A stretch of 23,849 nt of DNA, taken from NCBI GenBank assembly GCA_041739995.1, contig JBGSMV010000069.1:1-23849 (forward strand). Reading direction: 5' to 3'. Under the pieces are notes generated by a model. The model was not told the origin of the DNA. It saw only the letters and a program-made list of their open reading frames with translations, and made no database searches. Source of the stretch: Bdellovibrionota bacterium (GTDB lineage: Bacteria; Bdellovibrionota_C; UBA2361; JBGSMV01). The position numbers and the translations under genes were made by a program. Every line of letters starts with the position of its first letter. Within the stretch, counting starts at the first letter, position 1. Below are positions 1 to 23,849 of this stretch, in pieces.

Positions 1-2
1 GA

Positions 3-1772
3 GGCTTAGAGCCTGCGCTTGGAGATTGGCACCTTGGGGTAATCGGAGTGTTGGGGCTTCCGATGCGCAGCCGCACGGGACTCCTCGATGCGCTAAATCG
101 CCTAGCAATTCCCTATCGATGGGTGAACAGATTTGTTCCGCTTGGAAAACAAGATGCCCTAAAGGAGCTCAGAGAATACAAGCGAAAGTGGTTCGCGAAG
201 AGAAAAGGGATAGGGGTTATTATTAGCGAGATAATTTCAGGTGCTCAATCGGCGATGGTTGACACTGATGCGCTAAATAAGAGTGATGATGCTGATCAGG
301 CTCTACAGGAAGTGGCGGATGATCACGTGGCGTTTGGCTACTATACGCCAGTAGTGGTCTTGATGGACCGCGAGGCTGATAAGCTGCGCAGTCACGTCCG
401 TGAAGTGGAGCGAGTGATTAATTCCCACGGATTTGCAACGAGAATCGAAGACCTAAATGCTGTGGATGCGTGGCTTGGCTCAGTGCCTGGAAACTGCAGG
501 CACAATGTGCGACGTCCCATCATAAACACGCTGAACTTTACTCATCTGATGCCGCTCTCGGCGGTGTTCGCTGGTCCGAAGCGTAATCGCCATTTGGATG
601 GCCCACCACTATTCTATGCGAGCACTGGAGGGAGCACCCCATTTAGATTCGTTCCGCACATCGGAGACGTGGGGCATACGCTGATACTTGGTCCTACTGG
701 ATCCGGAAAGTCGACGCTCCTGTCATTTCTTGAGCTGCAGTTTCAGCGCTATCCAGACGCCCAGGTGTACATCTTTGATAAGGGGGGCTCTGCAAAGATT
801 GCGACCTATGGGGTCGGAGGTGACTACTACGAGCTCGGCGAGGATTCCTCCAAGTTGAGTTTCCAGCCCCTTGGTCACATCCATGAAGATAGTGAGCGGC
901 GTTGGGCGCATGAGTGGTTGCTTGATATTTTAGTGCAAGAAAACGTGACGCTTACCCCGTACCACAAGCAGGAGGTGTGGAGCGCACTAGGAAGGCTCGC
1001 TACGGCCCCTACGGCACAGAGAACGATGACTGGTTTTGTGTGCATGTTGCAAGACAATGAGCTGCGAAGGGCGCTGCATGGATACACGGTAGAAGGCGCG
1101 CATGGCGGCTTGCTGGATAGTGATAGCGACAACTTAAGCTATGGCCACTGGCAAACGTTTGAGACTGAGCATCTCATGAATCGAAAGCAGGCTGTGGCTC
1201 CGGTGCTGGCGTACTTGTTCCATCGCTTGGAGCAGCGGTTCAAAGGGCAACCGACGCTACTTGTTCTGGATGAAGCGTGGTTGTTTCTCGACCATCCGGC
1301 ATTTGCAGCGAAGATTCGCGAGTGGTTGAAGGTGCTTCGAAAAGCGAACGTGATGGTTGTTTTTGCAACGCAGTCACTCGCCGATGTCGACCAGAGTGTG
1401 GTGGCAAAGACAATTCGAGAGGCGTGCTTCACAAAAATTTATCTCCCAAACGGCGCAGCGTTGAACGAGGATGCGTTCGAAATGTATCGACGCTTTGGTC
1501 TTAATAAGAGGCAAGTCGAGATAGTCGCCAAGTCAATGCCGAAGCGGCACTACTACTATACCTCTCCACTGGGGAATCGGTTGTTTGAGCTGGGTTTGGG
1601 GGAAGCGGCCCTTGCCTACTGCGCTGCGAGTTCAAAGGAAATCCAAAGTTTTGCAGACGAGCTTAAGCAGCGCACAGCATCTGCCTCCGAGTTTAATCAG
1701 CACTATCTCGCGGGGCTAGGGCGACAGAACCTCGGCGTAAAGTTAGCTCAGCTTGAGAAGGAGGAAGTATGA
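3..1772 (+). CDS. trbE: Conjugal transfer ATPase TrbE (VirB4 family), 5'-truncated by window edge
   Basis: Frame is open from position 3 (GLEPALGDWHLGVIGVLGLP...LLDALNRLAIPYRW). Walker A GHTLILGPTGSGKST, FDKGGS motif, Walker B LLVLDEAW and IREWLKVLRKANVMVVFATQS are TrbE/VirB4 hallmarks. ATGA overlap with trbJ. Confidence 0.96.
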   Translation, partial: GLEPALGDWHLGVIGVLGLPMRSRTGLLDALNRLAIPYRWVNRFVPLGKQDALKELREYKRKWFAKRKGIGVIISEIISGAQSAMVDTDALNKSDDADQALQEVADDHVAFGYYTPVVVLMDREADKLRSHVREVERVINSHGFATRIEDLNAVDAWLGSVPGNCRHNVRRPIINTLNFTHLMPLSAVFAGPKRNRHLDGPPLFYASTGGSTPFRFVPHIGDVGHTLILGPTGSGKSTLLSFLELQFQRYPDAQVYIFDKGGSAKIATYGVGGDYYELGEDSSKLSFQPLGHIHEDSERRWAHEWLLDILVQENVTLTPYHKQEVWSALGRLATAPTAQRTMTGFVCMLQDNELRRALHGYTVEGAHGGLLDSDSDNLSYGHWQTFETEHLMNRKQAVAPVLAYLFHRLEQRFKGQPTLLVLDEAWLFLDHPAFAAKIREWLKVLRKANVMVVFATQSLADVDQSVVAKTIREACFTKIYLPNGAALNEDAFEMYRRFGLNKRQVEIVAKSMPKRHYYYTSPLGNRLFELGLGEAALAYCAASSKEIQSFADELKQRTASASEFNQHYLAGLGRQNLGVKLAQLEKEEV

Positions 1773-2524: not shown

Positions 2525-2531
2525 AGGAAGT

Positions 2532-3947
2532 ATGGCGGCCCAAGAAGGAGTGGTAGCGACGATTTCGCCGTTGAACGAAACTGTTCTATTGTTCGAGGAC
2601 ACAATCAATCGCGGGATTCTTGCGATTGGCCCTTACTCGCTGTCTTTGCTCACGTCGCTGCTCATTATTGAAGTGGTTGTTTTGGCGTTACTTTGGGCTG
2701 CCGATGGGGGTCCCCAACTTGGAAAAGCGATCCAACGAATTTTCGTAGTTACCATTCTCTCGGGGTTGCTCCTGAATGGAGGACAAAATTACAAGGATGC
2801 AGTTGATGTGGTGAGGAGATCGGCGGAGGCTGTGGGAGGTAAGACCGGTGCTGGCTCGCGTGTGGGAGGAGTGCCTGGGCAAGCGGAAGTAGAGCCGCTT
2901 TCGGTGCGCCAGCCGGATTCGATTATCGAGCGCGGATTCCTACTGGTAGGAAAGCAGGTCGCGGAATCGAGCAGTGGCGTGTTCGGAATCCTTGCTGGAG
3001 GATTCACTCTATTATTGGCTTTTATGACCTTAATGGCTTTCGCCGTGCTCGCGCTTGTCTGTGCCGTTACTTACATTGAGCTACAACTACTAATGGTGTG
3101 CGGAATGATACTGCTTCCGTTTGGGGTGTTCCGGCCGACGGCGTTTCTCGCTGAAAAGGTCTTTGGAATGATCGTCTCCTTTGCCGTTCGCATATTAGTT
3201 TTGAGCGTAATGATCGGTATCGCCAATGACCGACTTACCACGGTGGGTCCGGCCGACATTTCGAATTGGCCTCACATGGTGAATCTAGCGGTGCTCGCGT
3301 TGCTTCTGTCTGTGCTTGGATGGCATGCGCCGTCTATGGCTGCGAGTCTGCTCACGGGCACGCCGAGTCTCAATCCTGGAGCGGCGATGGCAACAGGAGC
3401 TGCGATGGTGGGGTCTTCGGCAATGCGAGTGGTGGGTAGTGCTGCGTCTGCGCCGTATGCCGCCGGCGCCGGGGCGGTTGCGGGCGCGCTGGCTGGAGGC
3501 GCGAGTGCTCTTGGTGGATTCATGCGAGGCGGAGGATCTGGTTCGTCGCCAACGCCGCCTACTCTCCCGAGTTTAGGCGGTGATGGTGGGGTGCCAAAGC
3601 CGAATTCGAGTGCCATGCCAAAAGGAGGAGATAGTTCGAGTTTCCCTGGAGGTAGTGGCGCAAACGGTCCTTTATCGACTGCTTCTGCGGCATCACAGCG
3701 AAGCTTTGTTGGGGCGGCGCTGAAAGGTGGCCTTGCAACTGGTGCCGGTGCGGTATTGGGAGCAGTGGGCGGTACCGGAAGCGCTGCAATAGCGCAGCTA
3801 GCGGGAGGAAAGAATCGCGCAGTAGGTGGGGCGTTTAGTCCAGCCGCCTATTTCAACTCCGTGATCAAACACGCAGGAGCGGGTGCTCTCGACGTGGGCA
3901 AGAATGTCGGCCAGAAAATGGCTAACCCCAATGAATCAAAGAAATAG
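2532..3947 (+). CDS. trbL: P-type conjugative transfer protein TrbL (VirB6 family)
   Basis: Multiple TM segments; YIELQLLMVCGMILLPFGVFRPTAFLAEKVFG and APSMAASLLTGTPSL motifs; Gly/Ala/Ser-rich C-terminal tail characteristic of TrbL. Confidence 0.92.
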   Translation: MAAQEGVVATISPLNETVLLFEDTINRGILAIGPYSLSLLTSLLIIEVVVLALLWAADGGPQLGKAIQRIFVVTILSGLLLNGGQNYKDAVDVVRRSAEAVGGKTGAGSRVGGVPGQAEVEPLSVRQPDSIIERGFLLVGKQVAESSSGVFGILAGGFTLLLAFMTLMAFAVLALVCAVTYIELQLLMVCGMILLPFGVFRPTAFLAEKVFGMIVSFAVRILVLSVMIGIANDRLTTVGPADISNWPHMVNLAVLALLLSVLGWHAPSMAASLLTGTPSLNPGAAMATGAAMVGSSAMRVVGSAASAPYAAGAGAVAGALAGGASALGGFMRGGGSGSSPTPPTLPSLGGDGGVPKPNSSAMPKGGDSSSFPGGSGANGPLSTASAASQRSFVGAALKGGLATGAGAVLGAVGGTGSAAIAQLAGGKNRAVGGAFSPAAYFNSVIKHAGAGALDVGKNVGQKMANPNESKK

Positions 3948-3986: not shown

Positions 3987-4065
3987 GTCGAAAGCGGAGA
4001 ACGGTAGAACTGTACGTGCGGTATGCGTATTGGTCTCTAACCGCGGAGACTATGAACGGGGGCCT

Positions 4066-4668
4066 ATGAGAAAGCTTGTTCTGCAGTTTGTTGGCGACAA
4101 GGAGTACGAACTCTTCGAAAGTTGTTTTGTTCATCCTCTGATTGAGGAGGAGCGACGCTGTGTTCGGGGAAAAAGGAGTGGAGCCTACCGAGGATTTAGT
4201 ACATTCCAATGGACGAAGGCTGTACAGGCAGTTTCTCTGCTCTTCATAGAAGCCGCTATTCGAAAGTTCCAGCCTGCCTATGGGCCTCTCCTGGTTGGCC
4301 CAAAGGGAAGTCCCGCGAGTTCCCTCGATTACGCCATTGATAAGCAAACGGAGTGGTTGACGGAGATGTTTGGGTGGACACCAGCGGGCACTGGGGTGAC
4401 CAAGAGACTGTTCCTTCGCTCAAACCCTGGGCAAAGATATCAGGGCCCAGTGGGCGTATCCATTAATTTGAACTGCCTCGCCTATGAGGAGATCGAAATT
4501 CTTCTAAATTACGAAGTACAACACTCGCTTCTTCAACTTACTCACCTGAAAGAAGCTATTCAGCAAAGGGCGCCGGAAGTCTGCACAAAGAAGGTACCTG
4601 CTCTTGCGCTAGTCAGGAGGAAGTCGCTCCTAGGAGAGCTCGATGGTGTGTTGGCGTTGGCCGACTAG
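4066..4668 (+). CDS. Hypothetical cytoplasmic protein inserted in the trb cluster; probable paralogue of 14776..15618
   Basis: 200-aa ORF from ATG 4066 with G-rich RBS (ORF track starts at TTG 4030); no signal peptide; colinear similarity to the N-terminal ~170 aa of the 14776 protein. Confidence 0.8.
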   Translation: MRKLVLQFVGDKEYELFESCFVHPLIEEERRCVRGKRSGAYRGFSTFQWTKAVQAVSLLFIEAAIRKFQPAYGPLLVGPKGSPASSLDYAIDKQTEWLTEMFGWTPAGTGVTKRLFLRSNPGQRYQGPVGVSINLNCLAYEEIEILLNYEVQHSLLQLTHLKEAIQQRAPEVCTKKVPALALVRRKSLLGELDGVLALAD

Positions 4669-4737: not shown

Positions 4738-5496
4738 GTGAGTATGTCAACAAAAGGCGAATTGTTATCAGCCCCACTATCGATGAAACCACAAGCTGGC
4801 CCGGCGACTCCGTACCTGCGCGCGCGACAGGAGTGGGACGATCGGTTGGGTGGTCTTTACCAACAGAGCTGCATGTGGAGGGGGGCGACGTTTGTCTCGT
4901 CCTCCGCCGCTGCGGTCCTTGCGGGCGCGCTCTTTATAATGGTGAACAAGGCGAGCGTGGTGCCTGTGATTGTGGGACTAGATCGCGAGCGTGGTGAGCC
5001 GGTTGTGATCGGGCCAGCTGCGCCAGGTCAATTTAGGCCAGGCCCTACCGAGGTGAGGTACTTCCTTACCCAATTAGTGAACAACGTGCGTGGAGTGCCG
5101 CTTGATCCAGTGGTGATGCGAAAGAGTTGGGAGCATGCGTATGCGTATCTTACATCTGATGCGGCAACGCTGATGGGGGAGTGGGCGCGTAAACCTGAAA
5201 GCAACGTATCTCAAATCGGAAAGCGCACCGTTACCGTGCAACCAATTGCAATCACCCAAGTAGCTAACAGCGAGTCGTATCAGGCCAGGTGGCAGGAGAC
5301 AGTATACGACAACGGTGGGCGAGTCTTAGATGAGTACACGATGACTGGGTTGTTCACTGTGGTGCGAAAGGACCCCACAGGAGAGGAAGTGTTGTGGATG
5401 AATCCGTTGGGGCTCTACGTCTCAAATTTTCAATGGTCGAGGGAGTTAACCCCGGAGCGAAACGTGTATGCACAAAGGGCGTTGCATGAGAGCTAG
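4738..5496 (+). CDS. trbF: Conjugal transfer protein TrbF (VirB8 family)
   Basis: TPYLRARQEWDDRLG, single TM, VRGVPLDPVVMRKSWEHAYAYLT, SYQARWQE and NPLGLYVSNFQWSREL are TrbF/VirB8 motifs. Start GTG 4738 or ATG 4744. Confidence 0.95.
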   Translation: MSMSTKGELLSAPLSMKPQAGPATPYLRARQEWDDRLGGLYQQSCMWRGATFVSSSAAAVLAGALFIMVNKASVVPVIVGLDRERGEPVVIGPAAPGQFRPGPTEVRYFLTQLVNNVRGVPLDPVVMRKSWEHAYAYLTSDAATLMGEWARKPESNVSQIGKRTVTVQPIAITQVANSESYQARWQETVYDNGGRVLDEYTMTGLFTVVRKDPTGEEVLWMNPLGLYVSNFQWSRELTPERNVYAQRALHES

Positions 5497-6523
5497 AATC
5501 TTACTAAGCGCCACTCTCGCGGTGCTCGTGCCAGTAATTGCCTGGGCGGACGGGCTTAGAACACCGTCGGCTAAGGAGCAGATGTTGCGTGAAATTGTGG
5601 AGAGCGCTGCCTACGACGCCAAGAAGGACATGGAGAGAACTCTGCAGGTTGACGCTCCAGAACAGACGATGCCAGAGGAGGTGGTGCCAGCGCCTAGAAA
5701 GGCCAAGGGAGATAAGACTGCGGAGCTAATTAGTGAGCTGTCTCGAGATGTAGATCTTCTGCAGTCGCGACTGGTGGTCCAGCGTGCCTCGCTGCTCGCC
5801 ACAGAAAAACCTAAGAATGCAATCACCATGAAAGCGAAGACAATCTATCCCTATGTGGAGGGCGGGGTCTTCGAGGTGCACGCTGCCAAAGAGTTTGTGA
5901 CCGACATTCAGCTCGAAGATGGCGAAGAGTTGCTCAATGCCCCAATTGCTGGCGATACGGTCCGTTGGAAGACGGCGGTGGTGCAGAGTGGGAAACGAGC
6001 GGAGCGAAAGACTCACATCATGCTTCGGCCACTCGACGACCATTTAGAAACAAACATTATCCTCACCACGACTAAGCGCACGTATCACCTCAATGCCAGT
6101 AGTGGTGCGTGGCATATGCCGGTCGTTGCGTGGACCTATCCACAGGACGAAGAGGAGCAGCGTTTCGCCCAAGCAAGGGAGGACGATGAGGAGGATCTGC
6201 TTGCGGGTGTAACTCCGGAGAAGTTGAACTTCGAATATGCGGTTTCCGGTGAGGATTATGGGTGGAAGCCGATACGAGTATTTGATGATGGCGCTAAGAC
6301 CTACCTCCAAATGCCCCTTGCCATGAGAGTCAATGAGGCCCCTGCGCTGTTCGTGTTTGTAGACGGGGATCCGAAGCTTGTGAACTACCGAGTAGCGAGA
6401 GGCTACTTCATTGTGGACCGTTTGTTTGAGGATGCGGAATTGAGGGTGGGTCGTGATAGGCGAGTAACGGTGAGAAGTAGGGAGCGCTCACAAAGATCGT
6501 TTCTTGATCGGCTTTTTGATTGA
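5486..6523 (+). CDS. trbG: P-type conjugative transfer protein TrbG (VirB9/CagX family)
   Basis: Signal peptide MRARILLSATLAVLVPVIAWA; VTDIQLEDGE, AGDTVRW, TTTKRTYHL, LNFEY...WKPIRVFDDGAKTYLQMP, EAPALFV, LVNYRV...YFIVDRLF motifs. Alternative start 5468. Confidence 0.95.
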   Translation: MRARILLSATLAVLVPVIAWADGLRTPSAKEQMLREIVESAAYDAKKDMERTLQVDAPEQTMPEEVVPAPRKAKGDKTAELISELSRDVDLLQSRLVVQRASLLATEKPKNAITMKAKTIYPYVEGGVFEVHAAKEFVTDIQLEDGEELLNAPIAGDTVRWKTAVVQSGKRAERKTHIMLRPLDDHLETNIILTTTKRTYHLNASSGAWHMPVVAWTYPQDEEEQRFAQAREDDEEDLLAGVTPEKLNFEYAVSGEDYGWKPIRVFDDGAKTYLQMPLAMRVNEAPALFVFVDGDPKLVNYRVARGYFIVDRLFEDAELRVGRDRRVTVRSRERSQRSFLDRLFD

Positions 6524-6532: not shown

Positions 6533-7690
6533 ATGCAACAGCAGCCTGTTTTGCGCCCTGCGGGACGCTTTCTCAACCGGAACCTCATTATTGTCGTAGT
6601 CGCAGCGCTGATGGTGATGGTTCTGTACTCAGTGGTGCAGGGGTTTGCGGCGCAGAGGCAGAAAGCTAGCCGACCGCAGGAGGTTCAGGTCGCAACTAGC
6701 ACTGGAATTTTGCAGCAGTTCCCAAGTTCCTATGACCGCATTCCCAGGCCTGTCGCTACGCAGCAACCGGTAGAGATTCGAGCACGCATGAGCGAGCGTA
6801 AGGTGGAGGCGGCGCCTCCTTCCGAACTCGAGCGATTGAGGGCGAGACTCGCTCTTCAGGCACTGCAAGCGGACCTTGTAATGGATGTGCGAAGTGCGGG
6901 TCGAGCTGGCTTGCCATCCACTGAGGTACAACCTGTCGCCCAAAACGCAGTGCAGCAGAACGGGCTCTCTATTGGAGTTTCGCTTGGTGCTTCTGGTGGT
7001 GGACCGGAGGTGTTGAATCCTCGTGATGGTTCCTCGCGGCAAGATGAGAAAGAGCAGTTTTTATCGAAAGCTCGGGATCCAAGTTTCGAGCATTCTTTCG
7101 GACTTGAGCCTGCTGGAAGTCCGTACACCATGATGGCTGGAACTATCATTCCTGGAGTGCTGATAAGTGGAATCAATAGTGATCTTCCAGGCCAGATTCT
7201 TGGGCAGGTCTCCGAAAACATTTTCGATACAAAACTGGGGAGACACTTGCTCGTTCCGCAGGGGACAAAGGTGATTGGACAGTATGATTCACGGGTGGTG
7301 TACGGGCAGGACAGGGTGCTTGTGGTGTGGACTAGGCTTGGGTTTCCAAATGGCACGGCCCTTTCGCTCGACGGTATGCCTGGAATGGATATGTCTGGGT
7401 ACGCGGGACTTAAAGATAAGGTGAATCATCACTTCTTGAGGCTGCTCACTGGAGTGGTGCTCGGCTCGATGCTCGGAGCTGGGGCGCAGATAGCGCAGGG
7501 CGACACGGGGACGTTGGATCCTTCCTTTTCGCAGCTAGCCTTGCAAGGTGCGGCGCAAAACATAAATCAGGCGGGTCAGCGAATTACGGAGAAGAATTTA
7601 GATATTCAGCCAACGATAGAAATTCGTCCTGGTCATCGTTTCTCTGTCTTCGTCACTAAGGACGTAGTGTTGAAACCATACAGAGAGTAG
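6533..7690 (+). CDS. trbI: Conjugal transfer protein TrbI (VirB10 family)
   Basis: N-terminal TM; AGTIIPGVLISGINSDLPG, PQGTKVIGQYDS, QDRVLVVWTRL, GYAGLKDKVNHH and IQPTIEIRPG VirB10 motifs. Confidence 0.96.
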   Translation: MQQQPVLRPAGRFLNRNLIIVVVAALMVMVLYSVVQGFAAQRQKASRPQEVQVATSTGILQQFPSSYDRIPRPVATQQPVEIRARMSERKVEAAPPSELERLRARLALQALQADLVMDVRSAGRAGLPSTEVQPVAQNAVQQNGLSIGVSLGASGGGPEVLNPRDGSSRQDEKEQFLSKARDPSFEHSFGLEPAGSPYTMMAGTIIPGVLISGINSDLPGQILGQVSENIFDTKLGRHLLVPQGTKVIGQYDSRVVYGQDRVLVVWTRLGFPNGTALSLDGMPGMDMSGYAGLKDKVNHHFLRLLTGVVLGSMLGAGAQIAQGDTGTLDPSFSQLALQGAAQNINQAGQRITEKNLDIQPTIEIRPGHRFSVFVTKDVVLKPYRE

Positions 7691-7698: not shown

Positions 7699-8106
7699 AT
7701 GAACAAGGTGTTTTTAATGGGAGCGGCGGTGGAACGTCCGGAGCTCAAGAAGGGTCGCTCTGGCACGCTGTACTGTGAGCTCAAGCTGGCAACCAATGAT
7801 CGGCGCCGAGCTGCGGATGGAGTGCTAGAGAGAACGGTGAAGTGGCATAGGGTGTTGTGTTTCGGTGACGTTGCTCAATTGGTCAGTGAGCAAGTGAGGT
7901 CGGGAACGGCGGTCATGGTTGAGGGTCGGCTGGAGCCGAAGCTCGTTCGTCGACAGGCAGGGAGTGACTTCGTGCAAACGGAAATTTTTGCGAGCAGCGT
8001 TGAGTTTCCGGAGGGGCGCTTACGGAGACGAGGTGCGCGAGTAGCTGCGATTAGCGCCATGCGCGCACGGGCAAATGGTCCGATGGAGGTGCGTGATGAA
8101 AGTTAG
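7699..8106 (+). CDS. ssb: Single-stranded DNA-binding protein (OB fold) lacking the acidic C-terminal tip
   Basis: MNKVFLMG...PEL, LATND, KWHRVLCFG, GTAVMVEGRL and TEIFASSVEF match the SSB pattern; GGGGG RBS; starts 8 bp after the trbI stop. Confidence 0.88.
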   Translation: MNKVFLMGAAVERPELKKGRSGTLYCELKLATNDRRRAADGVLERTVKWHRVLCFGDVAQLVSEQVRSGTAVMVEGRLEPKLVRRQAGSDFVQTEIFASSVEFPEGRLRRRGARVAAISAMRARANGPMEVRDES

Positions 8107-8530: not shown

Positions 8531-8556
8531 ACACAGAACGTCTGAACGGAGTGTCC

Positions 8557-14515: not shown

Positions 14516-14585
14516 GCCTTCCAGTCTACGAGTAATAAAGCTCAAATCAATCGAGTTTCGGCCTGATCCCATCTAGAAGCCTCTG

Positions 14586-14740: not shown

Positions 14741-14775
14741 CTAGACCTTCTCCGTCTCACATGACGGAGGAAAAA

Positions 14776-15630: not shown

Positions 15631-16014
15631 GTGGGTCCTGAGGAGCAGAGGGTAATCGAGTATGGGGAGTCCGAATCGGTGCCCAAGGGGTATCGGCGGT
15701 TTCTCTCTCGACTTCTCTTTCAGGCGGTGATGGATGCGTTGGAGCGTAGAGAACCCCAACGGCGAGCCGTTTACCTGTTGCATTATCGCCCGAATCCTCG
15801 AGCACTTAGCTGGTTTAAGTCACGAAGCCTTCATTGCTGCCCAGAACGAGGGGTGAGTTTCGAGTGGATCTGCGAGCAGTTGGACCTCAACCCAGAGATC
15901 CTTCGGTCAGTGGTTTTACAGCAGAACGTTGAACTCGTCCGCAGTGCTAGAAGTCCTCTAGGTTTTCTCTTGGTTTACAGACAAAACGCGAAGAAACCGA
16001 ACTATTTCGGATAG
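15631..16014 (+). CDS. Small helical hypothetical protein
   Basis: 127 aa, GGAG RBS, GTG start 12 bp after the previous stop; pattern LLFQAVMDA...ALSWFKS...SFEWICEQLDLNPEILR resembles a recurring family of uncharacterised small proteins. Confidence 0.7.
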   Translation: MGPEEQRVIEYGESESVPKGYRRFLSRLLFQAVMDALERREPQRRAVYLLHYRPNPRALSWFKSRSLHCCPERGVSFEWICEQLDLNPEILRSVVLQQNVELVRSARSPLGFLLVYRQNAKKPNYFG

Positions 16015-16145
16015 TTGCGATTGTGCGACTTAGAACCGAAGTGGTGGTAAAACCTGTGAGGCCAAATTGAGTACAAGCCGGCCCGAAAACTGTCCGGCTA
16101 CGAACTGTGCTCGGTTGCCTCATGCAAATGCGCAAGGGGAGCGGA

Positions 16146-17627
16146 ATGCTTAAGGTCCTGGTTGTTGAAAGAACGGGTGAGGCGAGAGGTCGAGCCCATG
16201 AATTCATTCAAGGATTAGTGCCTAACGAAGCCTCGTCTCTTGAATACGTTCCTCGCATTGATTTGTGTGCATGTAGCCCTGAGGAGCTTCGCTTCCGCGA
16301 CTCTCCTGAAATTCTCATCATTGGTCCCTCCATTATTAACGAAGACATGGTTCAGGCGGGTGCGCTGCGTAAGTTGCATCCAAGTGCGGCGTGCATTGCG
16401 ATTCTGCCAGCGCGCAGAGCGGACCTCTCATCTGTTGAGCACCTAGCTCGGATGGGAATTGATGATGTGGTGTCTCCTGGAATCGACCCCGCGGACTTCC
16501 AACGACGGCTAGTTCTTCTGGCGCGACGAATCGCGAGACCGAAGACGGGTAAGCTTGTGCTCGTGGAGAGTGCAAAGGGGGGAGTGGGTGTTACCTCGAT
16601 GGTGGCCGCTCTTGCTGATGCCGCCATGCAGGAAGGGAATAAGGTTTGTGTTGTAGATCTTGATTTTGAGACGCAAGACCTTAGTCGATTTCTTCAGGCG
16701 CGGCCGTTTGTTTCCGAAGCGGTTCAGCAACTGCTCGATGGTGAAAGGGCAATTTCTTCAGAGTATATCGACCAGGCATGTGTCCCTGTACAGATAGGAG
16801 AAGGCGAGTTGTCCTGTGTTCCTCCTCCGCCAGAGACAGATGCAATGCATGAGAGTAGGGGTGAAATCTCAAGGCGCCTGGTAGGCATCACTGAAGCGTT
16901 AGATACCGAACATGACCTCGTGTTCATTGATGCTGGGGCGTGTCATGGAAATATGCTGCGAGTGCTCGAGCGTGTTTCGGATGTTGTAGTGTGTCTAGTT
17001 TCAAATGACCCGGCCGCCTTGTATGCCTCGTTAGAGAAGATTCGAAAGGTGCGCGCACAGATGACGCCCACTGCCCGTCTGTTGGTCCTGGAGAATGCTG
17101 CTGTGGGGACCGGGCTCGATCACAGTTTGTTGCGCGAGGAGTTCAAACGTTTGGCGGGACTTGAAGCGCATGAATGGGAAACTCCTGTGCCTTACTCGAA
17201 GTCAGCGACTACATGGCCTGGTTCGGGGAGCACGCTTTTCTCACTCATGAGCAAGGCGCAGCGAGTCTCTATATCTAAACTACTCTTGTCGATTGGTGCT
17301 CCGCGGCAGGGCGAGGCGGCACTTGAGGTGGAGCGAGTCTCTAAGGTGGGACTGCTTACCAGAGTGTTCGGCAAGCGAGGTAGGGTTGCGGATGCTAAGC
17401 TGGTTGAACTCCCGTCTGCACCAACACTTCCGCTCCTTGGTAGTGATGAGAGTAAAGTGGTCTCTCTCGCGCGACAGCGACATATAAAGTCTCAAACCAA
17501 TAACGATGCGTCTGTGTTTAAGGTCCTCCAGATTTCTGAGGGGACTGGAGAAGCGCTTGAGGCAGCGGGAGGCGAGGGAGCGGTGAGAGAAGCGAAAGCG
17601 CTTATCTCCAAGGCTTCTCTGGTTTGA
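16146..17627 (+). CDS. cpaE: CpaE/TadZ-like pilus localisation protein (receiver-like domain + MinD/ParA-type ATPase)
   Basis: N-terminal atypical receiver (MLKVLVVE...ARMGIDDVV); deviant Walker A SAKGGVGVTS, VCVVDLD, DLVFIDAG; lies directly before flp. GGGGAG RBS before ATG 16146 (track start 16107). Confidence 0.85.
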   Translation: MLKVLVVERTGEARGRAHEFIQGLVPNEASSLEYVPRIDLCACSPEELRFRDSPEILIIGPSIINEDMVQAGALRKLHPSAACIAILPARRADLSSVEHLARMGIDDVVSPGIDPADFQRRLVLLARRIARPKTGKLVLVESAKGGVGVTSMVAALADAAMQEGNKVCVVDLDFETQDLSRFLQARPFVSEAVQQLLDGERAISSEYIDQACVPVQIGEGELSCVPPPPETDAMHESRGEISRRLVGITEALDTEHDLVFIDAGACHGNMLRVLERVSDVVVCLVSNDPAALYASLEKIRKVRAQMTPTARLLVLENAAVGTGLDHSLLREEFKRLAGLEAHEWETPVPYSKSATTWPGSGSTLFSLMSKAQRVSISKLLLSIGAPRQGEAALEVERVSKVGLLTRVFGKRGRVADAKLVELPSAPTLPLLGSDESKVVSLARQRHIKSQTNNDASVFKVLQISEGTGEALEAAGGEGAVREAKALISKASLV

Positions 17628-17664: not shown

Positions 17665-17859
17665 ATGAAAACCTTTCAGATATTGAAGACTAAGAATAAA
17701 GAAGCTGGCTTTAGTTTGCTGGAGTACGGCGTCGGCGCGGCTGTGATTTTAACCGTGGTCTTTATAGCGATGGGGGACTTGGGTAACTCGATGTCCGGAT
17801 TGCTGAATTCAATCGGGGGTTGGGCCGAGCAGCGAGCTGGAGAAATCGACGGTCAATAG
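17665..17859 (+). CDS. flp: Flp family major pilin
   Basis: 64 aa; leader ending EAG|FSLLEYG (E+5, Y+6 Flp motif), hydrophobic helix, AGGAG RBS; lies upstream of cpaB. Confidence 0.88.
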   Translation: MKTFQILKTKNKEAGFSLLEYGVGAAVILTVVFIAMGDLGNSMSGLLNSIGGWAEQRAGEIDGQ

Positions 17860-17877
17860 TTGATGAGGAAAGGACCT

Positions 17878-18774
17878 ATGGTAGCCCGAGTAGAGAAAAA
17901 TCAGCGGAAGATGCGGCGTGGGGCCGGCACCAAGCTTTTGGCGCCGACGATTCTGCTTGCAGCTTCCTTGATTGCGGGCGCCATAGTTCTAAAGCCTTCG
18001 GCGCGCGACACAGAGGCGGTGGCGAGAGCCCCGCAATTAGTCGGAGAGTTCGATCAGGTACAGGTCCCTGTCCCTTCGAAGCTTGTCCCAATTGGGACGC
18101 GCCTGAAGGACGTTCGATTTACGCGAGTGGCGTTTCCGGCCCATCAGGTGCCATCAGGTGCCTTGACCGATGTCTCGCCGTTTTTGGAGGCGATGGCAAT
18201 CGCGCCGCTCCCCGCCAATTTGCCCATATTTAGCGAGAACCTTTCGCTTACGTCATCTTCGACGAATCCTGTAATCGAGAGAATTCCGGATGGAATGCGG
18301 GCAATGACGTTGCGTGTCGATGCTACTGCGGCTGTGGAAGGTTGGGCTGGATCTGGTTCCGTGGTGGACATTGCTCTTATTGAGAGCGAGCGAACCACAG
18401 TAGTGGCGGAGCGGGTTAAAATTCTTTCTGCCGAGCGTTCCGTCATCCCCGTAGATGGGAGCACGCCGAATGTGCCGTCTACAGTCACTCTGTTGGTGAC
18501 TCAAGATCAATTTCTCGCAGTCTCAACTGCGGTAGGGAAGGGGAAAATTACGTTTGCGTTACGCTCCTCTCGGGACGAAGGCTCTTGGCAAGAAAATACG
18601 TTCTCAGCGCCTAGTTTACATAAACGTGCTGCCGCTGAACCGGTGTCGGTGTCCGGAGCCATGATCGACGCGAAGGGTCGAAAGCTTGTCTTGGTTAACG
18701 GTAGGTGGTCTGAGTCGACGGTGGTGCCTGAGGGCTTTCTCCGTGGGGCAGGCACCGAAGCAAAATCTGAATAA
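17878..18774 (+). CDS. cpaB: Flp pilus assembly protein CpaB/RcpC
   Basis: N-terminal TM, SAF-like domain (VPIGTRLKDV), IPDGMRAMTLRVD..AVEGW..SGSVVDI, TVTLLVT and GKITFALRS RcpC motifs. Start may be 17860, 17863 or 17878. Confidence 0.92.
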   Translation: MVARVEKNQRKMRRGAGTKLLAPTILLAASLIAGAIVLKPSARDTEAVARAPQLVGEFDQVQVPVPSKLVPIGTRLKDVRFTRVAFPAHQVPSGALTDVSPFLEAMAIAPLPANLPIFSENLSLTSSSTNPVIERIPDGMRAMTLRVDATAAVEGWAGSGSVVDIALIESERTTVVAERVKILSAERSVIPVDGSTPNVPSTVTLLVTQDQFLAVSTAVGKGKITFALRSSRDEGSWQENTFSAPSLHKRAAAEPVSVSGAMIDAKGRKLVLVNGRWSESTVVPEGFLRGAGTEAKSE

Positions 18775-18811: not shown

Positions 18812-20191
18812 ATGAAAGCAGCGGACAATCATGGAAGAAGGTTGGCGCTGCTGCCGGTTCCCGTAGAGGGAGCTTCTGGCGTAGGGAGTTCTCGCACCAA
18901 TGCCCTCACTCCTGTCCTACAGCAAATTCTTCGCGAAGCGCGCCAAGAGCTTGGCGTATCCTTGCTTGAGGGGAGTGCTTCGGGAACCGAAGTAGAGGTG
19001 GTGGTAGCTGAGGCATGCGAGCGCTTAGGAATAAAGCTAACTACTCTCGAGCGCGATCTTGTAGTTGCAGAGCTGGAGAAGGAGTCTCGACCCTTTGGCC
19101 CACTTGAGCCGCTTGTCAACGATGTCTCCGTCAGTGACATTATCATCACTGGTTTTGATAAAATTAATGTTCAGCAGGGACGAAGAAATTTTCTTACCGA
19201 CATTCGCTTTCCGTCGCAGACGGACTACGAGGCGTTTGTTGAGCGTCTATTAATGAAAGCTGGCACCACCTACTCGACGAAGAAACCAGTAGCTGATGGC
19301 ATGATGGATGGTTTCGCGCGAATTCACGTCGTCCATCGCTGTTTGTGTGCTGAGGGAGAGGGTCCATACCTGACGATTCGATTGAATCGTTACGCGTCTG
19401 TGCGCACCGGTGATCTTATCAAGGCAGGGCTCGCACCAGCTGAGGTATTTCGTTATCTAGAAGGAATCGTCCGCGTTGGCCGAACTGTCTTGATTGTGGG
19501 CGAAGTCGGTGCTGGAAAGACAACTTTGGCTCGCGCGCTTGCGGCGAGCATTCCAGAGGATGAATCGATTCTCGTAATTGAAGACACCCCGGAGATAAAG
19601 CTGGACCACCGCCTTGTCCGTTCAGTAGTTACGCGCGAGGCAAACACGGACGGTGTTGGGCGCATGCCGCCAGCTGAGCTGATTCGAGCTGGGATGCGTA
19701 TGGCAATGAACCGAATAATCTTCGGTGAAATGCGAGATGCAGAGGCCGCCGAAGCGTTTATTGACGTATGCGCGTCGGGGCATCCGGGGCTCTCAACCAT
19801 TCATGCTCGTTCAGCCGCAGAGGCACTTACGCGACTAGAGCTGTTTTTAGGGCGCGCTCAAAGAGGCGTATCTAGAGAAGTACTCAGCCAGCAAATGGTT
19901 ACTGCAGTAGCGGTAATCGTGTATGTCGATCTGTGTCGCGAGACGGGGCGTCGAAGAATCATGGAAATAAAGGAAATTGGACCAGTTGCGGATGGAAGGA
20001 TCCGTGAGCGCGACATGTTTGGGTATCGTGTCGAAGAGGGTGTGCCTGTGTGGAGTGTTGCCCAAAAAGTGTCCGCGCATCGCTCGCTACTGGAGCGCCT
20101 TGATCAGCCGGTGGTTCTATCTGAGTTTCCACAAGAGCTGACAGTGGATCTGAGCTCCGAGTTCGCGCATGCCGCTGGGAGGACGTACTGA
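18812..20191 (+). CDS. tadA: Tad pilus assembly ATPase TadA/CpaF
   Basis: FGPLEPLVNDVSVSDIII, Walker A GEVGAGKTT, Asp box IEDTPEI, Walker B IIFGEMRD, His box SGHPGLSTIHARSA, GRRRIMEI. Confidence 0.95.
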   Translation: MKAADNHGRRLALLPVPVEGASGVGSSRTNALTPVLQQILREARQELGVSLLEGSASGTEVEVVVAEACERLGIKLTTLERDLVVAELEKESRPFGPLEPLVNDVSVSDIIITGFDKINVQQGRRNFLTDIRFPSQTDYEAFVERLLMKAGTTYSTKKPVADGMMDGFARIHVVHRCLCAEGEGPYLTIRLNRYASVRTGDLIKAGLAPAEVFRYLEGIVRVGRTVLIVGEVGAGKTTLARALAASIPEDESILVIEDTPEIKLDHRLVRSVVTREANTDGVGRMPPAELIRAGMRMAMNRIIFGEMRDAEAAEAFIDVCASGHPGLSTIHARSAAEALTRLELFLGRAQRGVSREVLSQQMVTAVAVIVYVDLCRETGRRRIMEIKEIGPVADGRIRERDMFGYRVEEGVPVWSVAQKVSAHRSLLERLDQPVVLSEFPQELTVDLSSEFAHAAGRTY

Positions 20192-21060
20192 TGCGTTATT
20201 CACCAGCAAAGAAACTTGAGCGCGCACATGTCATCATGGGGCAATCGGAGGATGCCGCAGTGCCGCGGGGAAAGCGTGCGGTACGCCTGGGTGCTGAGAA
20301 GCATGTTTCAGAGACTCTTGGGCAGATCACCTCGGAGCTCCTGTATGCGGGTCTCACACCGGAGTATCTCCGAACCGTAGCGTTGCATTCTGCGCTTGCG
20401 GGGATGGCGTGCGGGGTTGTGGCTCTGGTGTCGGGGGTGTCCCTGATTGTTGTCCTGGCGCTGGTAGTCCCAGTGGTGCACTGGTTTCGAGTGAAATCTA
20501 TGGCGGCTCGGCGCGCGTTATCGTTTGAGCGAGACTATACGGCATTCCTGTTGGCATTAGCCTCCTCGGTCCGAGCTGGACTTGACCCATTGAATGCAAT
20601 GATTAAGTGCGTGGAGCTGTTCCCGAAGGATAGCGAAGTGCGCAGTGCGATTTCAAAGTTGAAGGTGGATATTGATTCTGGGCGTACGGAGGAGGCGGCT
20701 TTTGGTCGCTTTGCGGAGGATATCCGCCATCCCGACATTGGGCTGTTTTCAACCGCGATTGTCTTGGCACGGCGAGAAGGGTCCTCGCTTGGTGGGTGTT
20801 TGGAGCGCCTCGCTCGGGTGACAAGGCAGCGGCAAAGTTTTCGTAGGAAGACAAGGGCGGCTGTCGCGATGCAACGCATGAGTGCGATAGGGCTCGCATT
20901 TATTGCGATTCTGATCATAGGCATTCAGTTCATCGGGAATCCGGAAAGTTTGCGTGTGGCCTTGGCAACGGACTTCGGGTTTCGCGCGATGACGATTGGG
21001 ACTCTCGCAATAGTCTCCGGAATTATCTGGATGATCCGGCTCGCGAGGACTCGCATATGA
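20191..21060 (+). CDS. tadB: TadB-like inner-membrane platform protein (T2SS F domain)
   Basis: TM pair; LLALASSVRAG, AIVLARREGSSLGGCLERLA; C-terminal TMs; TGATG coupling to tadA. Confidence 0.9.
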   Translation: MRYSPAKKLERAHVIMGQSEDAAVPRGKRAVRLGAEKHVSETLGQITSELLYAGLTPEYLRTVALHSALAGMACGVVALVSGVSLIVVLALVVPVVHWFRVKSMAARRALSFERDYTAFLLALASSVRAGLDPLNAMIKCVELFPKDSEVRSAISKLKVDIDSGRTEEAAFGRFAEDIRHPDIGLFSTAIVLARREGSSLGGCLERLARVTRQRQSFRRKTRAAVAMQRMSAIGLAFIAILIIGIQFIGNPESLRVALATDFGFRAMTIGTLAIVSGIIWMIRLARTRI

Positions 21061-22016
21061 TGGAAGTGGTACTGCTCGCACTGTCTGTTGGCGCGGCGTG
21101 CGTGTCGCTCTTGTTGATGGTTCGAGCCTCATCGCGTTCAGCTGTGGAAGTGCATGAGGACTTATTAGCCGCTCAGGACGCCCGAGTGGAAAAGGAAGCT
21201 GCTGAGGCGGCAGGGCGCCTTAAGATTGATGGAGAGCGAATTTATCTAAATGATGAGTTTGCCGCACATGGCCTTCTCACGGATAGGCAGCGCAGAGCAT
21301 TTAAGTCGGGAAACCGAATTAGAATCGTCTATGGTGCGCTCGTTGGTGTTGGAGCTGGACTTTGGATTGCGAATAACCCCGTTAACTTTGGGCTCATGAT
21401 CCTGTGTGGTGCCGCTGTGGGGTGGTTGCTTGCGCGGAATTCGCTTAAAGCGAACCAGCGCAGATTTTTTCGTGAAATTGAGTATCTGCTTCCGATTGTG
21501 ATGGAGCGACTGGTAATGGCAGTCCAGGCTGGGCACGATATATTAGCCTCGGTTGGCCAAGTGTTGCGCGTTGAGGGAGAGGCTAGAAAACATAAGCGGG
21601 TCAAGTTTGTAAAGTCTTACGACCCTGTGACGCAGCTCTTGCATGTCGTCTACTCGATGACAGAGAGCGGGTGTAGTTTTGAGGCGGCGCTGAGCTATGT
21701 AGCTCAACGAGTTGAGTCTGCCCCACTTAGACATGCGTTCATTCATTTAGGAATTGCGCACCGAGAAGGTGGGGAGCTCATTAAGCCTCTTCGAGAGCTC
21801 GCTGACGCCACTCAGCTATATTTTCAGGAGACTGTTGAGGAAGAGATAGCGAAGATGCCAATTCGCGCCACTATGCCTTTGGTACTTACTTTTACGGGGC
21901 TCATTATATTTTTCGTTACGGCGCCTATTTCCCAAGTTTCAGAAATTGCCGAGAAGGCTGCTCCGCGATCGGGGTCGAGCAAGACCCAACAACAGCATCC
22001 GAGGAGGGGGTTGTGA
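21057..22016 (+). CDS. tadC: TadC-like inner-membrane platform protein (T2SS F domain)
   Basis: LPIVMERLVMAVQAG, EAALSYVA, GGELIKPLRELAD, EEEIAKMPIRATMPLV; second GspF-type gene after tadB with ATGA overlap. Confidence 0.9.
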   Translation: MMEVVLLALSVGAACVSLLLMVRASSRSAVEVHEDLLAAQDARVEKEAAEAAGRLKIDGERIYLNDEFAAHGLLTDRQRRAFKSGNRIRIVYGALVGVGAGLWIANNPVNFGLMILCGAAVGWLLARNSLKANQRRFFREIEYLLPIVMERLVMAVQAGHDILASVGQVLRVEGEARKHKRVKFVKSYDPVTQLLHVVYSMTESGCSFEAALSYVAQRVESAPLRHAFIHLGIAHREGGELIKPLRELADATQLYFQETVEEEIAKMPIRATMPLVLTFTGLIIFFVTAPISQVSEIAEKAAPRSGSSKTQQQHPRRGL

Positions 22017-23467
22017 GAAGTCGAGCTAGTCAGTGTGGCTCCGTAACGCTTCTTGTGGCCGTCACCATTCTACCGCTGCTGTTTCTTGGATTGGCGCTTT
22101 CGGTTGATATGGCGAATTACTATGGAGATACCCGAGCGGTGCAGTCGGCGCTAGACGATGCCGCGATGCACGCCTATCGCTTTTTGCCTTATCAGGCGGA
22201 CGCGGAGCGAGCGGCCACATCATACCTTGCTACAAGATATCCACAGTACTTTGAGAACGGACAAAATGTGGAGATGAGGGTTACCGGAGATGCGATAGCG
22301 CTTCGCTATGTGGGGAGGAGTCCTCTAGTCTTTCCGAGACTGTTTGGGCTCCTCACACAGAGTGACGTGCCAGAGGATATCTCGATCGCAGCGACGGGCG
22401 TCGCTCGTGGTACTGCGATGGATGTGTTTATTGCGTTGGATGCATCAGCGCAGTACATGGCACCACCTCTTGCGGGTCCTGCGTGGGAAAGTGACACAGA
22501 CTGGCCGGCGGCAGGGTTCTTTCAGAATCTTCATACTTTCATTGGCGCAGATGGACAGCCAATCGATGCGCGAGTTGCGACGCAGCAGTGTTGGAACCCG
22601 GCGCTGGGAATGGTCAAGAGGGCTGCGCTTCGAACTTATCAGTACTTTAGTGCCTTCAATCGGGATCAGGTGGGTGTAGGGGTTTTCCCGGGGTATGGCG
22701 CATATGTAGATGTGCTTCGCGACGTGTTGCCACTTGATGTTCCGGTAGAAAGTGGAGCAGAAGCCAAGTGGGTTGATTTCTATGGTGAGGCAAGAGGGGA
22801 TGCTTACTGTGCGGGCGCTGCGGAACGAGAAGTGAACGAGGCTAAGTATCGCCTGCCATCTAACATGGAGAACCTGCCTACGTGGACACCGCCGAGCGGG
22901 GCGCCGGCTCAAATGGTCGTGCCGCCAACGTGGAATTTTGATCCTGACTACGCAAGCTACCTTCGGGTGTCGCAAGCAATCTGGTCGGCGGCAAGCAGAG
23001 ATGGTGGGATGCCTGAGTTCGCTTCATTGCTCCAGTACTCGGCATCGATGTTGCTTGGAGCGCCAATTCTCGAAACCCGCACGTCGTTGAAAATGCAAAC
23101 AATGAAGATAGGTTTCATATTTGCAGGAGACCTGCCTTGGGTTGCGGGAACTAGATGGACTCCTGGTGGCCCCAGCGAGCCGGCGCTTAGGCAATCTCTG
23201 CAGAATCTTCGAAGCTTTGTGGAACAGGATCTAGAAAGCTTAGACATGCGCCTACAATACTATTATGTCCTGTTTGATCACCCTGGTAACGGGGGCGTAG
23301 GAGCTCTGGTCGATGAGTTGCAGGCCGTGTTTGATGATGAGTTAGGAACAGAAGAGTCGTCGCGCGTTAAGGTAGATGTGGTTTTTGCGCAAAGTGCAGA
23401 ACGCTTCGGGCGTGAGATGCTTCCGCCGCTGTTGCTCACCAAGCGAAATGTGATGGTGTCTCAATGA
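22013..23467 (+). CDS. tadG: TadG-like minor pilin with degenerate vWA-like domain
   Basis: QCG|SVTLLVAVTILPLLFLGLALSVDMA...VQSALDDAAMHA Tad N-terminal domain; MDVFIALDAS vWA-like first strand; GTGA overlap with tadC. Confidence 0.78.
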   Translation: MRSRASQCGSVTLLVAVTILPLLFLGLALSVDMANYYGDTRAVQSALDDAAMHAYRFLPYQADAERAATSYLATRYPQYFENGQNVEMRVTGDAIALRYVGRSPLVFPRLFGLLTQSDVPEDISIAATGVARGTAMDVFIALDASAQYMAPPLAGPAWESDTDWPAAGFFQNLHTFIGADGQPIDARVATQQCWNPALGMVKRAALRTYQYFSAFNRDQVGVGVFPGYGAYVDVLRDVLPLDVPVESGAEAKWVDFYGEARGDAYCAGAAEREVNEAKYRLPSNMENLPTWTPPSGAPAQMVVPPTWNFDPDYASYLRVSQAIWSAASRDGGMPEFASLLQYSASMLLGAPILETRTSLKMQTMKIGFIFAGDLPWVAGTRWTPGGPSEPALRQSLQNLRSFVEQDLESLDMRLQYYYVLFDHPGNGGVGALVDELQAVFDDELGTEESSRVKVDVVFAQSAERFGREMLPPLLLTKRNVMVSQ

Positions 23468-23849
23468 AAGCTCGATCTCATTGCATAGAGGGCGGCATGG
23501 CTCTCCTTGAGGCGGCGATAGTGTCCGTGTTGCTTATGACTCTGGTGATCGGAGGCATTGCGGCGCGGCAAATCATAACCCGAGTTGATGAGGTGCGTTC
23601 GATCGCTAATCGACCGCTTCTCCAGATGTCAGTGAAGCCGCTTGAGATTAGGTTCACTCCGACAGGGGAGCCTGAAGTGCGTGTGCACATAGATAGACTT
23701 AGCGTGGGAATACGGGAGGCTGCCGAAGCAGCCGAGATTCAGCTCCGGCAGGCCCTTTCCAATAATGGAACCCCGGAAGAGCCATTCTTTATTGAGGCTA
23801 AGTTTGCGGTAGTACATGTGGACCCTTCTACGGGGAGGCCAACTGGGCA
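23464..23849 (+). CDS. TadE-like pseudopilin, 3'-truncated by window edge (not in ORF track)
   Basis: ATG 23464 overlaps the tadG stop (ATGA); MKARSHCIEGG|MALLEAAIVSVLLMTLVIGGIAA has G|xxxxE and a hydrophobic helix; frame stays open to the window end. Confidence 0.8.
   Translation, partial: MKARSHCIEGGMALLEAAIVSVLLMTLVIGGIAARQIITRVDEVRSIANRPLLQMSVKPLEIRFTPTGEPEVRVHIDRLSVGIREAAEAAEIQLRQALSNNGTPEEPFFIEAKFAVVHVDPSTGRPTG

Follow-up and report, generated by a model that had tools for sequence, protein, structure and literature searches.

A conjugative element of a Bdellovibrionota bacterium carries an extra copy of Tad pilus genes between its transfer genes

The stretch of DNA analysed here, referred to as the window, is the entire contig C59 (23,849 nt) of the draft genome of an uncultured Bdellovibrionota bacterium related to the predatory Bdellovibrio. 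This draft comprises 81 contigs, is 91% complete and has a low read depth; its order is represented by 91 species genomes in the comparison set. The window carries a set of Trb genes of a type IV secretion system (T4SS), a giant TadE-type minor pilin and a Tad pilus locus. It belongs to a mobile DNA-transfer element that carries an extra contact-pilus gene copy wedged between its transfer genes. The gene content and gene order that a first-pass annotation had read from the window are borne out by open reading frames (ORFs), Pfam and NCBIfam.

Ten genes are located between positions 3 and 11001, all co-oriented on the + strand and, by their ORF coordinates, with largest gaps of 82 and 80 nt, so that the closely spaced run from trb through ssb and a VirB9-like gene to the giant pilin described earlier stands. 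The run opens with the C-terminal 589 amino acids (aa) of a 5'-truncated TrbE/VirB4 ATPase (3–1772; NCBIfam TrbE, E 1.5e-249, model positions 219–793 of 815), followed by VirB5-like TrbJ (1769–2524; NCBIfam TrbJ_Ti, 115 bits, cut-off 100.55), TrbL/VirB6 (2532–3947; Pfam TrbL, E 2.9e-19) and a 212-aa protein, u212 (4030–4668), which is discussed below. The set continues with TrbF/VirB8 (4738–5496; Pfam VirB8, E 6.9e-37; NCBIfam TrbF, 169 bits, cut-off 152), TrbG/VirB9 (5468–6523; Pfam CagX, E 3.5e-54; NCBIfam TrbG_Ti, 202 bits, cut-off 180.85), TrbI/VirB10 (6533–7690; Pfam TrbI, E 7.8e-62) and a short SSB of the element (7699–8106; Pfam SSB, E 2.6e-22). A small protein of 131 aa that resembles the C-terminus of VirB9 comes next (8075–8470). 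Its match to Pfam CagX (E 1.6e-6, 28.5 bits) lies under the cut-off of 34.2 and it is also detected with the TrbG of the same window (BLASTP E 3e-4); it is probably a lipoprotein, its signal peptide and lipoprotein cysteine having been judged by eye.

The last co-oriented gene after the Trb set encodes a giant TadE-type minor pilin of 816 aa (8551–11001), which starts 80 nt past the lipoprotein gene. Pfam TadE matches its residues 14–56 (E 4.1e-9), and a G/xxxxEY-type motif was recognized by eye at its N-terminus. We take the G/xxxxE(Y) motif found at the N-termini of the major pilin Flp, the giant pilin and the TadE-like protein of the Tad locus to be the pilin-type motif. The predicted structure consists of a helix (residues 17–56) followed by β-rich domains, with a mean predicted local distance difference test (pLDDT) of 71.9 and a predicted template modelling (TM) score (pTM) of 0.35. 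Foldseek against PDB returned only matches with TM ~0.1 for this model, and a sequence profile search of PDB returned none. Cysteines are kept across nine homologues of the giant pilin.

The Tad locus follows on the same strand, as had been noted, and starts 5.1 kb past the giant pilin gene. It comprises, all on the + strand, a TadZ/CpaE-like ParA ATPase with an N-terminal extension (16107–17627; Pfam AAA_31, BcsQ and MipZ), a 64-aa Flp-type major pilin (17665–17859; Pfam Flp_Fap, E 0.0019, 18.4 bits, under the cut-off of 32.2) with a GFSLLEY motif judged by eye, CpaB/RcpC (17860–18774; NCBIfam pilus_cpaB, 101.9 bits, cut-off 71), the TadA/CpaF ATPase (18812–20191; Pfam T2SSE, E 1.2e-31), TadB (20191–21060; Pfam T2SSF, E 2e-13) and TadC (21057–22016; Pfam T2SSF, E 3.7e-5, just under the cut-off). 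The last two genes encode a TadG-like large minor pilin of 484 aa (22013–23467; Pfam Tad (PF13400), 22.4 bits, cut-off 22.3) and a TadE-like minor pilin, cut by the contig end after its first half (23464–23847; hhalign with a TadE-like profile). TadA, the TadB/TadC platform, TadZ and CpaB are thus all present in the locus, and the element provides a Flp-type major pilin as well as TadE/TadG-type minor pilins. Pfam and NCBIfam detect no secretin (RcpA/CpaC) in the window or on the C24 side (see below) and no prepilin peptidase (TadV/CpaA) in the window. By its predicted genes, the locus has the core of a Tad system but lacks an in-locus secretin or peptidase, as does the core locus of the host genome.

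Split genes and contig ends place the window in the middle of a single conjugative element, either an integrative and conjugative element (ICE) or a plasmid, that spans contig C3, the window and contig C24 in reversed orientation. The sum of these three contigs gives a size of at least 58 kb, a lower bound as the ends of the element lie beyond them. At the 5' side the TrbE gene is split: residues 1–218 of a relative's TrbE match C3:6890-7540 and residues 218–782 match the window, and the 3' end of C3 carries TrbC, TrbD and TrbE residues 1–218. At the 3' side the window shares an exact 14-nt overlap with the reverse complement of C24, the sole match of at least 8 nt between the window 3' end and the ends of other contigs; overlaps of at least 10 nt occur in 10 of the 25,920 ordered pairs of contig ends. 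The TadE-like gene is divided over the same junction, with profile columns 4–121 in the window ORF (hhalign probability 97.9%) and columns 135–223, in the same frame, in the C24 tail (hhalign probability 95.7%).

From this junction onward, C24 encodes a response regulator, a hybrid kinase and a 215-aa protein and then, on the opposite strand, M23, SH3, a TrbB-like ATPase, a 376-aa protein, the S26 peptidase TraF, a tyrosine recombinase and a 416-aa protein. Further along come a CRISPR (clustered regularly interspaced short palindromic repeats) array, a type I-E cas set, an RNase T-like gene, a gene for a 218-aa protein, a coupling protein (T4SS-DNA_transf, E 1.5e-83) and a DUF3363 relaxase-part protein that is cut by the contig end; the relaxase catalytic domain is not seen on C24. 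The type I-E system is complete (Cas3, Cse1, Cse2, Cas7, Cas5, Cas6e, Cas1 and Cas2; L010:1-7600 and L181:5418-8291), its array has at least 33 repeats with a 61-nt period, and it is placed between the coupling protein and the integrase/TraF/TrbB block. On C3, a sigma-54-dependent response regulator and a 750-aa double AAA+ protein precede trbC (L247:2364-6215); this regulator may be the element's own transfer control. A similar regulator is found beside the TrbB block of contig C390 of genome G033 (L198:16880-18262).

With a VirB4-family ATPase, a channel and pilus set, a coupling protein and part of a relaxase among its predicted products, the Trb part is of the P-type (Trb; mating-pair formation type T, MPF-T). 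Two blocks of conjugation genes converge on the Tad block, which, with transfer genes on both of its sides, lies inside the element. Both the Tad block and the giant pilin therefore very probably belong to a conjugative element, in our view. The first-pass annotation had advised looking beyond the window for further transfer and integration features. TrbC and TrbD are indeed found on C3, and TrbB, the coupling protein, the relaxase part and an integrase on C24, but a search for tRNA genes found none, and C3, the window and C24 have no repeat in common of the att type that was sought. A circular closure from C24 to C3 is unsupported: the left-end ORF of C3 resembles a secreted protein and not the start of a relaxase, and the two ends do not overlap.

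TrbI occurs in 17 of the 91 genomes of the order, three of which hold short fragments only, and on this distribution the Trb part is a patchy mobile element. Four relatives on long contigs share the gene order (DUF2840)-TrbC/TrbD-TrbE-J-L-F-G-I-SSB, and SSB follows trbI in all four annotated related elements (G025, G048, G084 and G019). Homologues of the VirB9-like protein follow trbI or ssb in 7/80 genome loci and 12/36 metagenome loci. Downstream, the same four relatives carry the VirB9-like protein (in some), variable cargo, a u212-family gene and ArdC on the other strand, and they end on a closing block of TraF, a protein of ~375 aa for which no family was found, a 71-aa protein, TrbB, SH3 and M23, after which unrelated genes follow. 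This closing block is conserved in Bdellovibrionota Trb elements (L065-L069; G048:C35, G084:C78 and G019:C7) and is located at L010:9970-13822 on C24 of the host genome, where the 71-aa protein is missing. The ATPase downstream of trbI in the relatives was considered as a candidate TadA and rejected; it is TrbB-like, measures 304–334 aa and lies between the TraF, SH3 and M23 genes.

The combination of Trb and Tad genes is encountered again in G033, a genome from another family of the order. On its contig C150 (L038:6744-9063), TrbG and TrbI are followed by a giant pilin, which starts ~96 nt past trbI, and then by two secreted paralogues. Its contig C390 carries a u212-family gene, a u127-like gene, TadZ through TadG, a TadE-like gene, a regulator and a hybrid kinase, which face M23, SH3, TrbB and a 72-aa gene, an order that equals that of the window plus C24. 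The regulator and kinase of this contig are closer to the C24 copies than to the copies on C64, the contig of the host's core Tad locus, and its TadG is the best match of the window TadG (37%, E 2e-100), the host's own C64 copy reaching 30%. The G033 bin is fragmented with 7% contamination, and its contig ends do not overlap with each other.

In a search of 5.8 billion protein clusters, the closest relatives are P0039 for TrbI (69%), P0002 for the giant pilin (59%) and P0004 for TadZ (65%), each a single sequence from a contig of 84,613 bp. The runner-up for TadZ, P0005, reaches 64%, and all others remain at or below 44%. A quick TrbI tree groups the window with P0039 and P0040 (a partial sequence, 84% identical) with a Shimodaira–Hasegawa-like approximate likelihood ratio (SH-aLRT) support of 99 and leaves the G033:C150 copy unplaced. 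Together, the two G033 contigs and, by inference, the 84,613-bp contig support a pairing that is rare yet recurring. The physical linkage of the two modules, proposed earlier, and its recurrence hold up through the flanking transfer genes, G033:C150 and G033:C390. As for conserved synteny, the same order is found in G033:C390 but is missing from most related Trb loci.

The lineage also keeps such pilus genes apart from the element. TadA relatives are found in 91/91 genomes of the order with 36–71% identity to the window TadA, the closer core-type copies at ~50–63%. The core Tad locus of the host genome (C64:50179-61332) has the same gene order as the window, at 30–60% identity, and runs TadZ-Flp-CpaB-TadA-B-C-G, a 230-aa TadE-like gene, a response regulator and a hybrid kinase; identities are 38% for TadZ, 52% for Flp, 60% for TadA and 54% for TadC. 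A third, more distant Tad locus is located on C47 (C47:28904-35686). Neither a secretin nor a prepilin peptidase adjoins any of the three loci, and the whole host genome gives two secretin hits (C23:59793-60284 and C22:36120-36632) and one A24 prepilin peptidase hit (C64:162997-163353). The best match of the window TadZ within the order is 43% identical; since no close orthologue exists there, the window Tad copies are, by these identities, old paralogues or imports and not a recent duplication.

The giant-pilin family is present in 33 of the 41 genomes of the order that were covered by its search. The nearest relatives of the window copy are P0002 and the G033:C150 pilin (29% over the full length, E 4.7e-85), and G033 is also closest among the 8 of 124 genomes found at E ≤ 1e-35 in a phylum-wide search. 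Genome contigs scanned with the giant pilin as sole query gave no match, nor did metagenome contigs scanned with an alignment of the pilin pair. The host genome holds a second giant pilin, an orphan on C11 that adjoins etfAB (L025:10226-12712), and in the same-genus genome G001 a giant pilin likewise adjoins etfAB (L039:12005-14908, G001:C82). In both genomes these orphan, etfAB-linked genes are far from any Tad locus. By comparison of these copies, the Tad block and giant pilin of the window are additional, diverged versions of genes that are also kept on the chromosome in this lineage. The case that the first-pass annotation had set against itself, a tad locus and a giant pilin in relatives at this position without trb genes, is only half borne out: relatives have such genes without trb neighbours, but these are different, core paralogues at other positions.

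Between the Trb and Tad blocks, a gap of 816 nt separates the giant pilin from the gene for a 230-aa protein, probably secreted (11818–12510, +; DUF4124, E 0.0011, under the cut-off; signal peptide judged by eye). It is followed by the only long opposite-strand gene here, which encodes a probably secreted protein of 583 aa (12821–14572, −) without a family match in Pfam, NCBIfam or PHROGs. Kinship of this protein with the secreted proteins after the giant pilin in G033 was considered and dropped (hhalign probability 1.2%). The next two genes on the + strand are u285, which encodes a divergent u212-family member (14761–15618; hhalign with the family profile), and u127, which encodes a 127-aa protein that travels with the element (15631–16014) and ends 92 nt before TadZ. 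Homologues of u127 are found on C21 of the host genome, in the Trb locus of G004 and upstream of TadZ in G033:C390.

The protein u212, located between trbL and trbF, has homologues with 36–57% identity in related Trb elements and on contig C21 of the host genome; Pfam, NCBIfam and PHROGs hold no match for its family. Its predicted model is confident (pLDDT 81, pTM 0.77) and has no fold match in PDB, with nothing from Foldseek at E ≤ 0.001 and a best VIA-align Z of 4.0; the top ESM Atlas score is 0.81, and a PDB profile search gave E 0.96. The earlier claim that one family is represented in both halves of the window is upheld at the profile level only: u285 matches a six-member u212 profile with an hhalign probability of 94.6% (E 6.8e-8, 163 columns), and BLASTP of 4030–4668 against 14761–15618 gives no match. 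Both proteins match one same ORF of a relative, and G033:C390 has a u212-family member in the matching place, upstream of its Tad locus. In sister elements the u212-family gene neighbours ArdC. On C21 (L180:8825-11626 and 13365-13916), one u212 copy is fused N-terminally to a 933-aa STAND NTPase with TPR repeats.

The stretch is present in four DNA runs of one study with biofilm or hot-spring metagenome labels, as short contigs with a depth of ~2–8, and these four low-depth runs contain no sequence bridging the end of the window contig. The runs listed as containing the stretch include none of RNA. A promoter and terminator scan gave a signal no better than shuffled sequence, and a search with Rfam matched no family. 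Elsewhere in the host genome, C27 (L011:5844-7724, − strand) encodes a 626-aa flagellin whose N- and C-terminal helical regions are separated by six inserted FG-GAP repeats. The two halves of a type II/IV secretion ATPase appear to be located at the end of C27 (L011:8695-9192) and at the start of C33 (L012:136-777), and this split gene suggests that the two contigs are neighbours.

Tentatively, and with somewhat less than even confidence, we favour a reading by analogy in which the pilus makes contact in the service of DNA transfer, over one in which it is cargo for adhesion or predation. When the element is active, the giant pilin would be made together with the Trb channel and would prime or tip a Tad filament assembled by the element's own motor, the pilins being processed by the host's single prepilin peptidase. 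The filament would attach to a second cell and draw it near enough for Trb-mediated DNA transfer, and the system would be the type IVc counterpart of the accessory pilus of IncI plasmids and PAPI-1. We favour this mating pilus because the linkage of Trb and Tad outlived much sequence divergence, because a tip-type pilin follows Trb core genes in two genomes, in both at an operon-like distance, and because the element-borne type IV pili that were tested serve mating. To our knowledge, this holds for every element-borne type IV pilus tested.

Several observations weigh against this mating role. The giant pilin, TadZ, Flp, CpaB, TadB, TadC and TadG occur in 0/15 Trb loci from 12 genomes of the order. 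Among 80 genome TrbI loci (≤ 10 kb on each side), the giant pilin is present in one and the six Tad genes (TadZ, Flp, CpaB, TadB, TadC and TadG) in none, and among 36 metagenome TrbI loci, many of them short, neither the giant pilin (0/36) nor the Tad genes (0/36) were found. With the module missing from 15/15, 79/80 and 36/36 loci, the pairing is, on these gene counts, a rare sub-lineage and not a standard design, and the counts do not support a linked Trb and Tad system as a general unit. In four annotated relatives, moreover, the slot of the giant pilin is taken by variable cargo (AbiE, PIN, HNH and DUF5677), and the element itself also bears the large CRISPR-Cas cargo. The Tad block retains its own two-component regulators, like the chromosomal copy, which fits a captured host module. 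Its TadE-like gene has an in-frame TGA nine codons past the contig junction (L010:17590-17933, − strand of C24), which may reflect either a genuinely broken gene or an assembly error at low coverage. The evidence for recurrence has weak points as well. Upstream of trbG in G033:C150 lie NIF3, AAA_18 and PfkB genes and not trbF, L, J and E, so that the TrbG-TrbI-pilin arrangement is either a remnant or a three-gene module. That P0039, P0002 and P0004 lie on one contig we infer from the identical 84,613-bp figure alone. Quick trees of TadA and of TadA plus CpaB are star-like, and a topology test rejects neither a clade of the window with G033:C390 (approximately unbiased (AU) test, p 0.755) nor one of the window with the host's own core copy (p 0.544); the TadA plus CpaB and TrbI trees, as far as these sequences go, do not establish a shared origin of the window and G033 copies.

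A real possibility, though one we would not call probable, is that the locus, its regulators and the tip pilin are a captured contact pilus that spreads as adaptive cargo for the benefit of the host, for example in a new prey range, adhesion or biofilm, and has no role in transfer. The core locus has a complete paralogue in the Tad block, down to the regulator and hybrid kinase, the giant pilin sits where relatives carry variable cargo, CRISPR-Cas is also aboard, and most related Trb elements lack the module. Precedents point the same way: Tad loci are described as the type IV filament systems that are commonest on plasmids and most transferred (PMC6668835), a plasmid-borne tad locus of Cutibacterium acnes is predicted to act in adhesion and tissue colonisation (PMC5696575), and Kil-like Tad pili mediate prey contact in predators (PMC12075869). 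The linkage seen here, however, is kept over deep divergence (69% for TrbI, 65% for TadZ and 59% for the giant pilin, each against its relative from an 84,613-bp contig) and is seen in G033 as well, whereas cargo changes from one to the next of the four annotated sister elements. The giant pilin is also placed after the Trb core genes, and not with the Tad locus, in both genomes.

A bolder variant, which we regard as unlikely, would have the element take over a predator's prey-contact pilus: the giant tip pilin, made with the Trb channel, would dock on non-kin or prey cells, into which the channel would deliver DNA or protein. If true, it would represent a type IV secretion counterpart of the Kil pilus with its type III secretion system (T3SS) and a route of gene flow from predator to prey.

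It is decidedly unlikely that the two modules are neighbours by chance, through insertion of one or two mobile elements beside a second chromosomal Tad locus, through decay of an element, or through misbinned or misjoined contigs. The draft of 81 contigs with low read depth, the fragmented and 7% contaminated G033 bin, the TrbG-TrbI pair of G033:C150 without other trb genes and the rarity of the pairing leave room for such an accident. Against it stand the conjugation genes that flank the Tad block on both sides, contig joins that are each backed by two independent signals, the core Tad locus and core giant pilin that remain elsewhere in the genome, the same order in G033:C390 and the 84,613-bp figure shared by the three closest relatives.

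Very improbable, in our judgement, is a delivery or killing machine in which the Trb channel, directed by the Tad pilus at prey or rivals, injects protein or DNA into them, a type IV parallel to the Kil pilus and needleless T3SS of Myxococcus. Predators do occur in the Bdellovibrionota, Kil tips depend on a second secretion machine (PMC12075869), and secreted proteins of no assigned function follow the giant pilin both here and in G033. The relaxase part, coupling protein, SSB, TraF and TrbB, joined by ArdC in the sister elements, are nevertheless a signature of DNA conjugation, and general scans, none of them aimed at effectors, recognised no effector-like family. We give almost no credence to a hybrid conduit in which a secretin-less Tad pilus exits through the VirB9/VirB10 outer-membrane core with the aid of the VirB9-like lipoprotein: although none of the three Tad loci adjoins a secretin in a genome with two secretin hits and one A24 peptidase hit, and the giant pilin of G033:C150 is accompanied by TrbG-TrbI alone, the lipoprotein is also found in elements without Tad genes, and a core-type Tad locus occurs in 91/91 genomes against TrbI in 17/91, so that the Tad pili of this lineage do not need VirB9/VirB10.

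The favoured mating pilus has its nearest functional parallel in known accessory pili. I-complex plasmids such as R64 and TP114 encode, next to their T4SS, a separate type IV filament with a tip adhesin, the accessory type IVb or thin pilus, which keeps donor and recipient in contact and so stabilises the mating pair (PMC8213034). The ICE PAPI-1 likewise has an accessory type IVb pilus with this role. Here, in contrast, the pilus is of the Tad/Flp type (type IVc) with TadZ, CpaB and TadB/C instead of a pilL-V set, the T4SS is a P-type Trb system, the candidate tip is an 816-aa TadE-type pilin and not PilV, and no shufflon was seen. The module is moreover a paralogue of the chromosomal system of the same lineage, and it is known here from its genes alone. 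By analogy, the element's pilus would work most like those of R64, TP114 and PAPI-1 without being a member of that kind, because its genes are of the Tad type; this lowers the claim to membership and not the likeness of working.

The Kil pilus of Myxococcus xanthus, in the portion of PMC12075869 available, is also a Tad-type pilus of a predatory lineage with large minor pilins encoded apart from the main locus and with a tie to a second secretion machine, a tie that is inferred here, the likeness being drawn by description. Within the same portion, large minor pilins are presented as exchangeable tips on the Tad pili of predators, and Herrou et al. 2025 place a Kil-like Tad subclass in the Bdellovibrionales (PMC12075869). 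The partner machine here, however, would be a conjugative T4SS and not a needleless T3SS, and the module is located on a mobile element. On linear plasmids of C. acnes, a tad locus adjoins VirB4-type transfer genes on a putatively conjugative replicon (PMC5696575); these plasmids differ in their Gram-positive host, in FtsK/TcpC/VirB4-type transfer genes, in Tad pili that their authors read as colonisation factors, and in the lack of a giant TadE pilin in the transfer operon. The P-type Trb systems of Ti and RP4 share TrbC, D, E, J, L, F, G, I and B, TraF, the coupling protein and the relaxase with the present element. Unlike in those systems, TrbB and TraF share a separate block with the SH3 and M23 proteins, trbI is followed by SSB and a VirB9-like lipoprotein, and in this sub-lineage the separate block is inverted, with the Tad locus between the two blocks. 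A literature search, which reached few subscription journals, found no published Trb-type element with a Tad locus in Gram-negatives.

The places and recipients that a conjugative element can reach are decided by accessory pili, and the examples investigated to date are the type IVb pili that enterobacterial plasmids and PAPI-1 carry. If the mating-pilus reading is true, the accessory-pilus principle would extend to the most-transferred type IV filament and to a predatory phylum in which Tad-type pili are thought to mediate prey contact. The element would also offer a natural test of the idea of the exchangeable tip, as the tip gene is located in another operon than the pilus motor. If the cargo reading is true instead, the element would show how contact specificity moves between predators.

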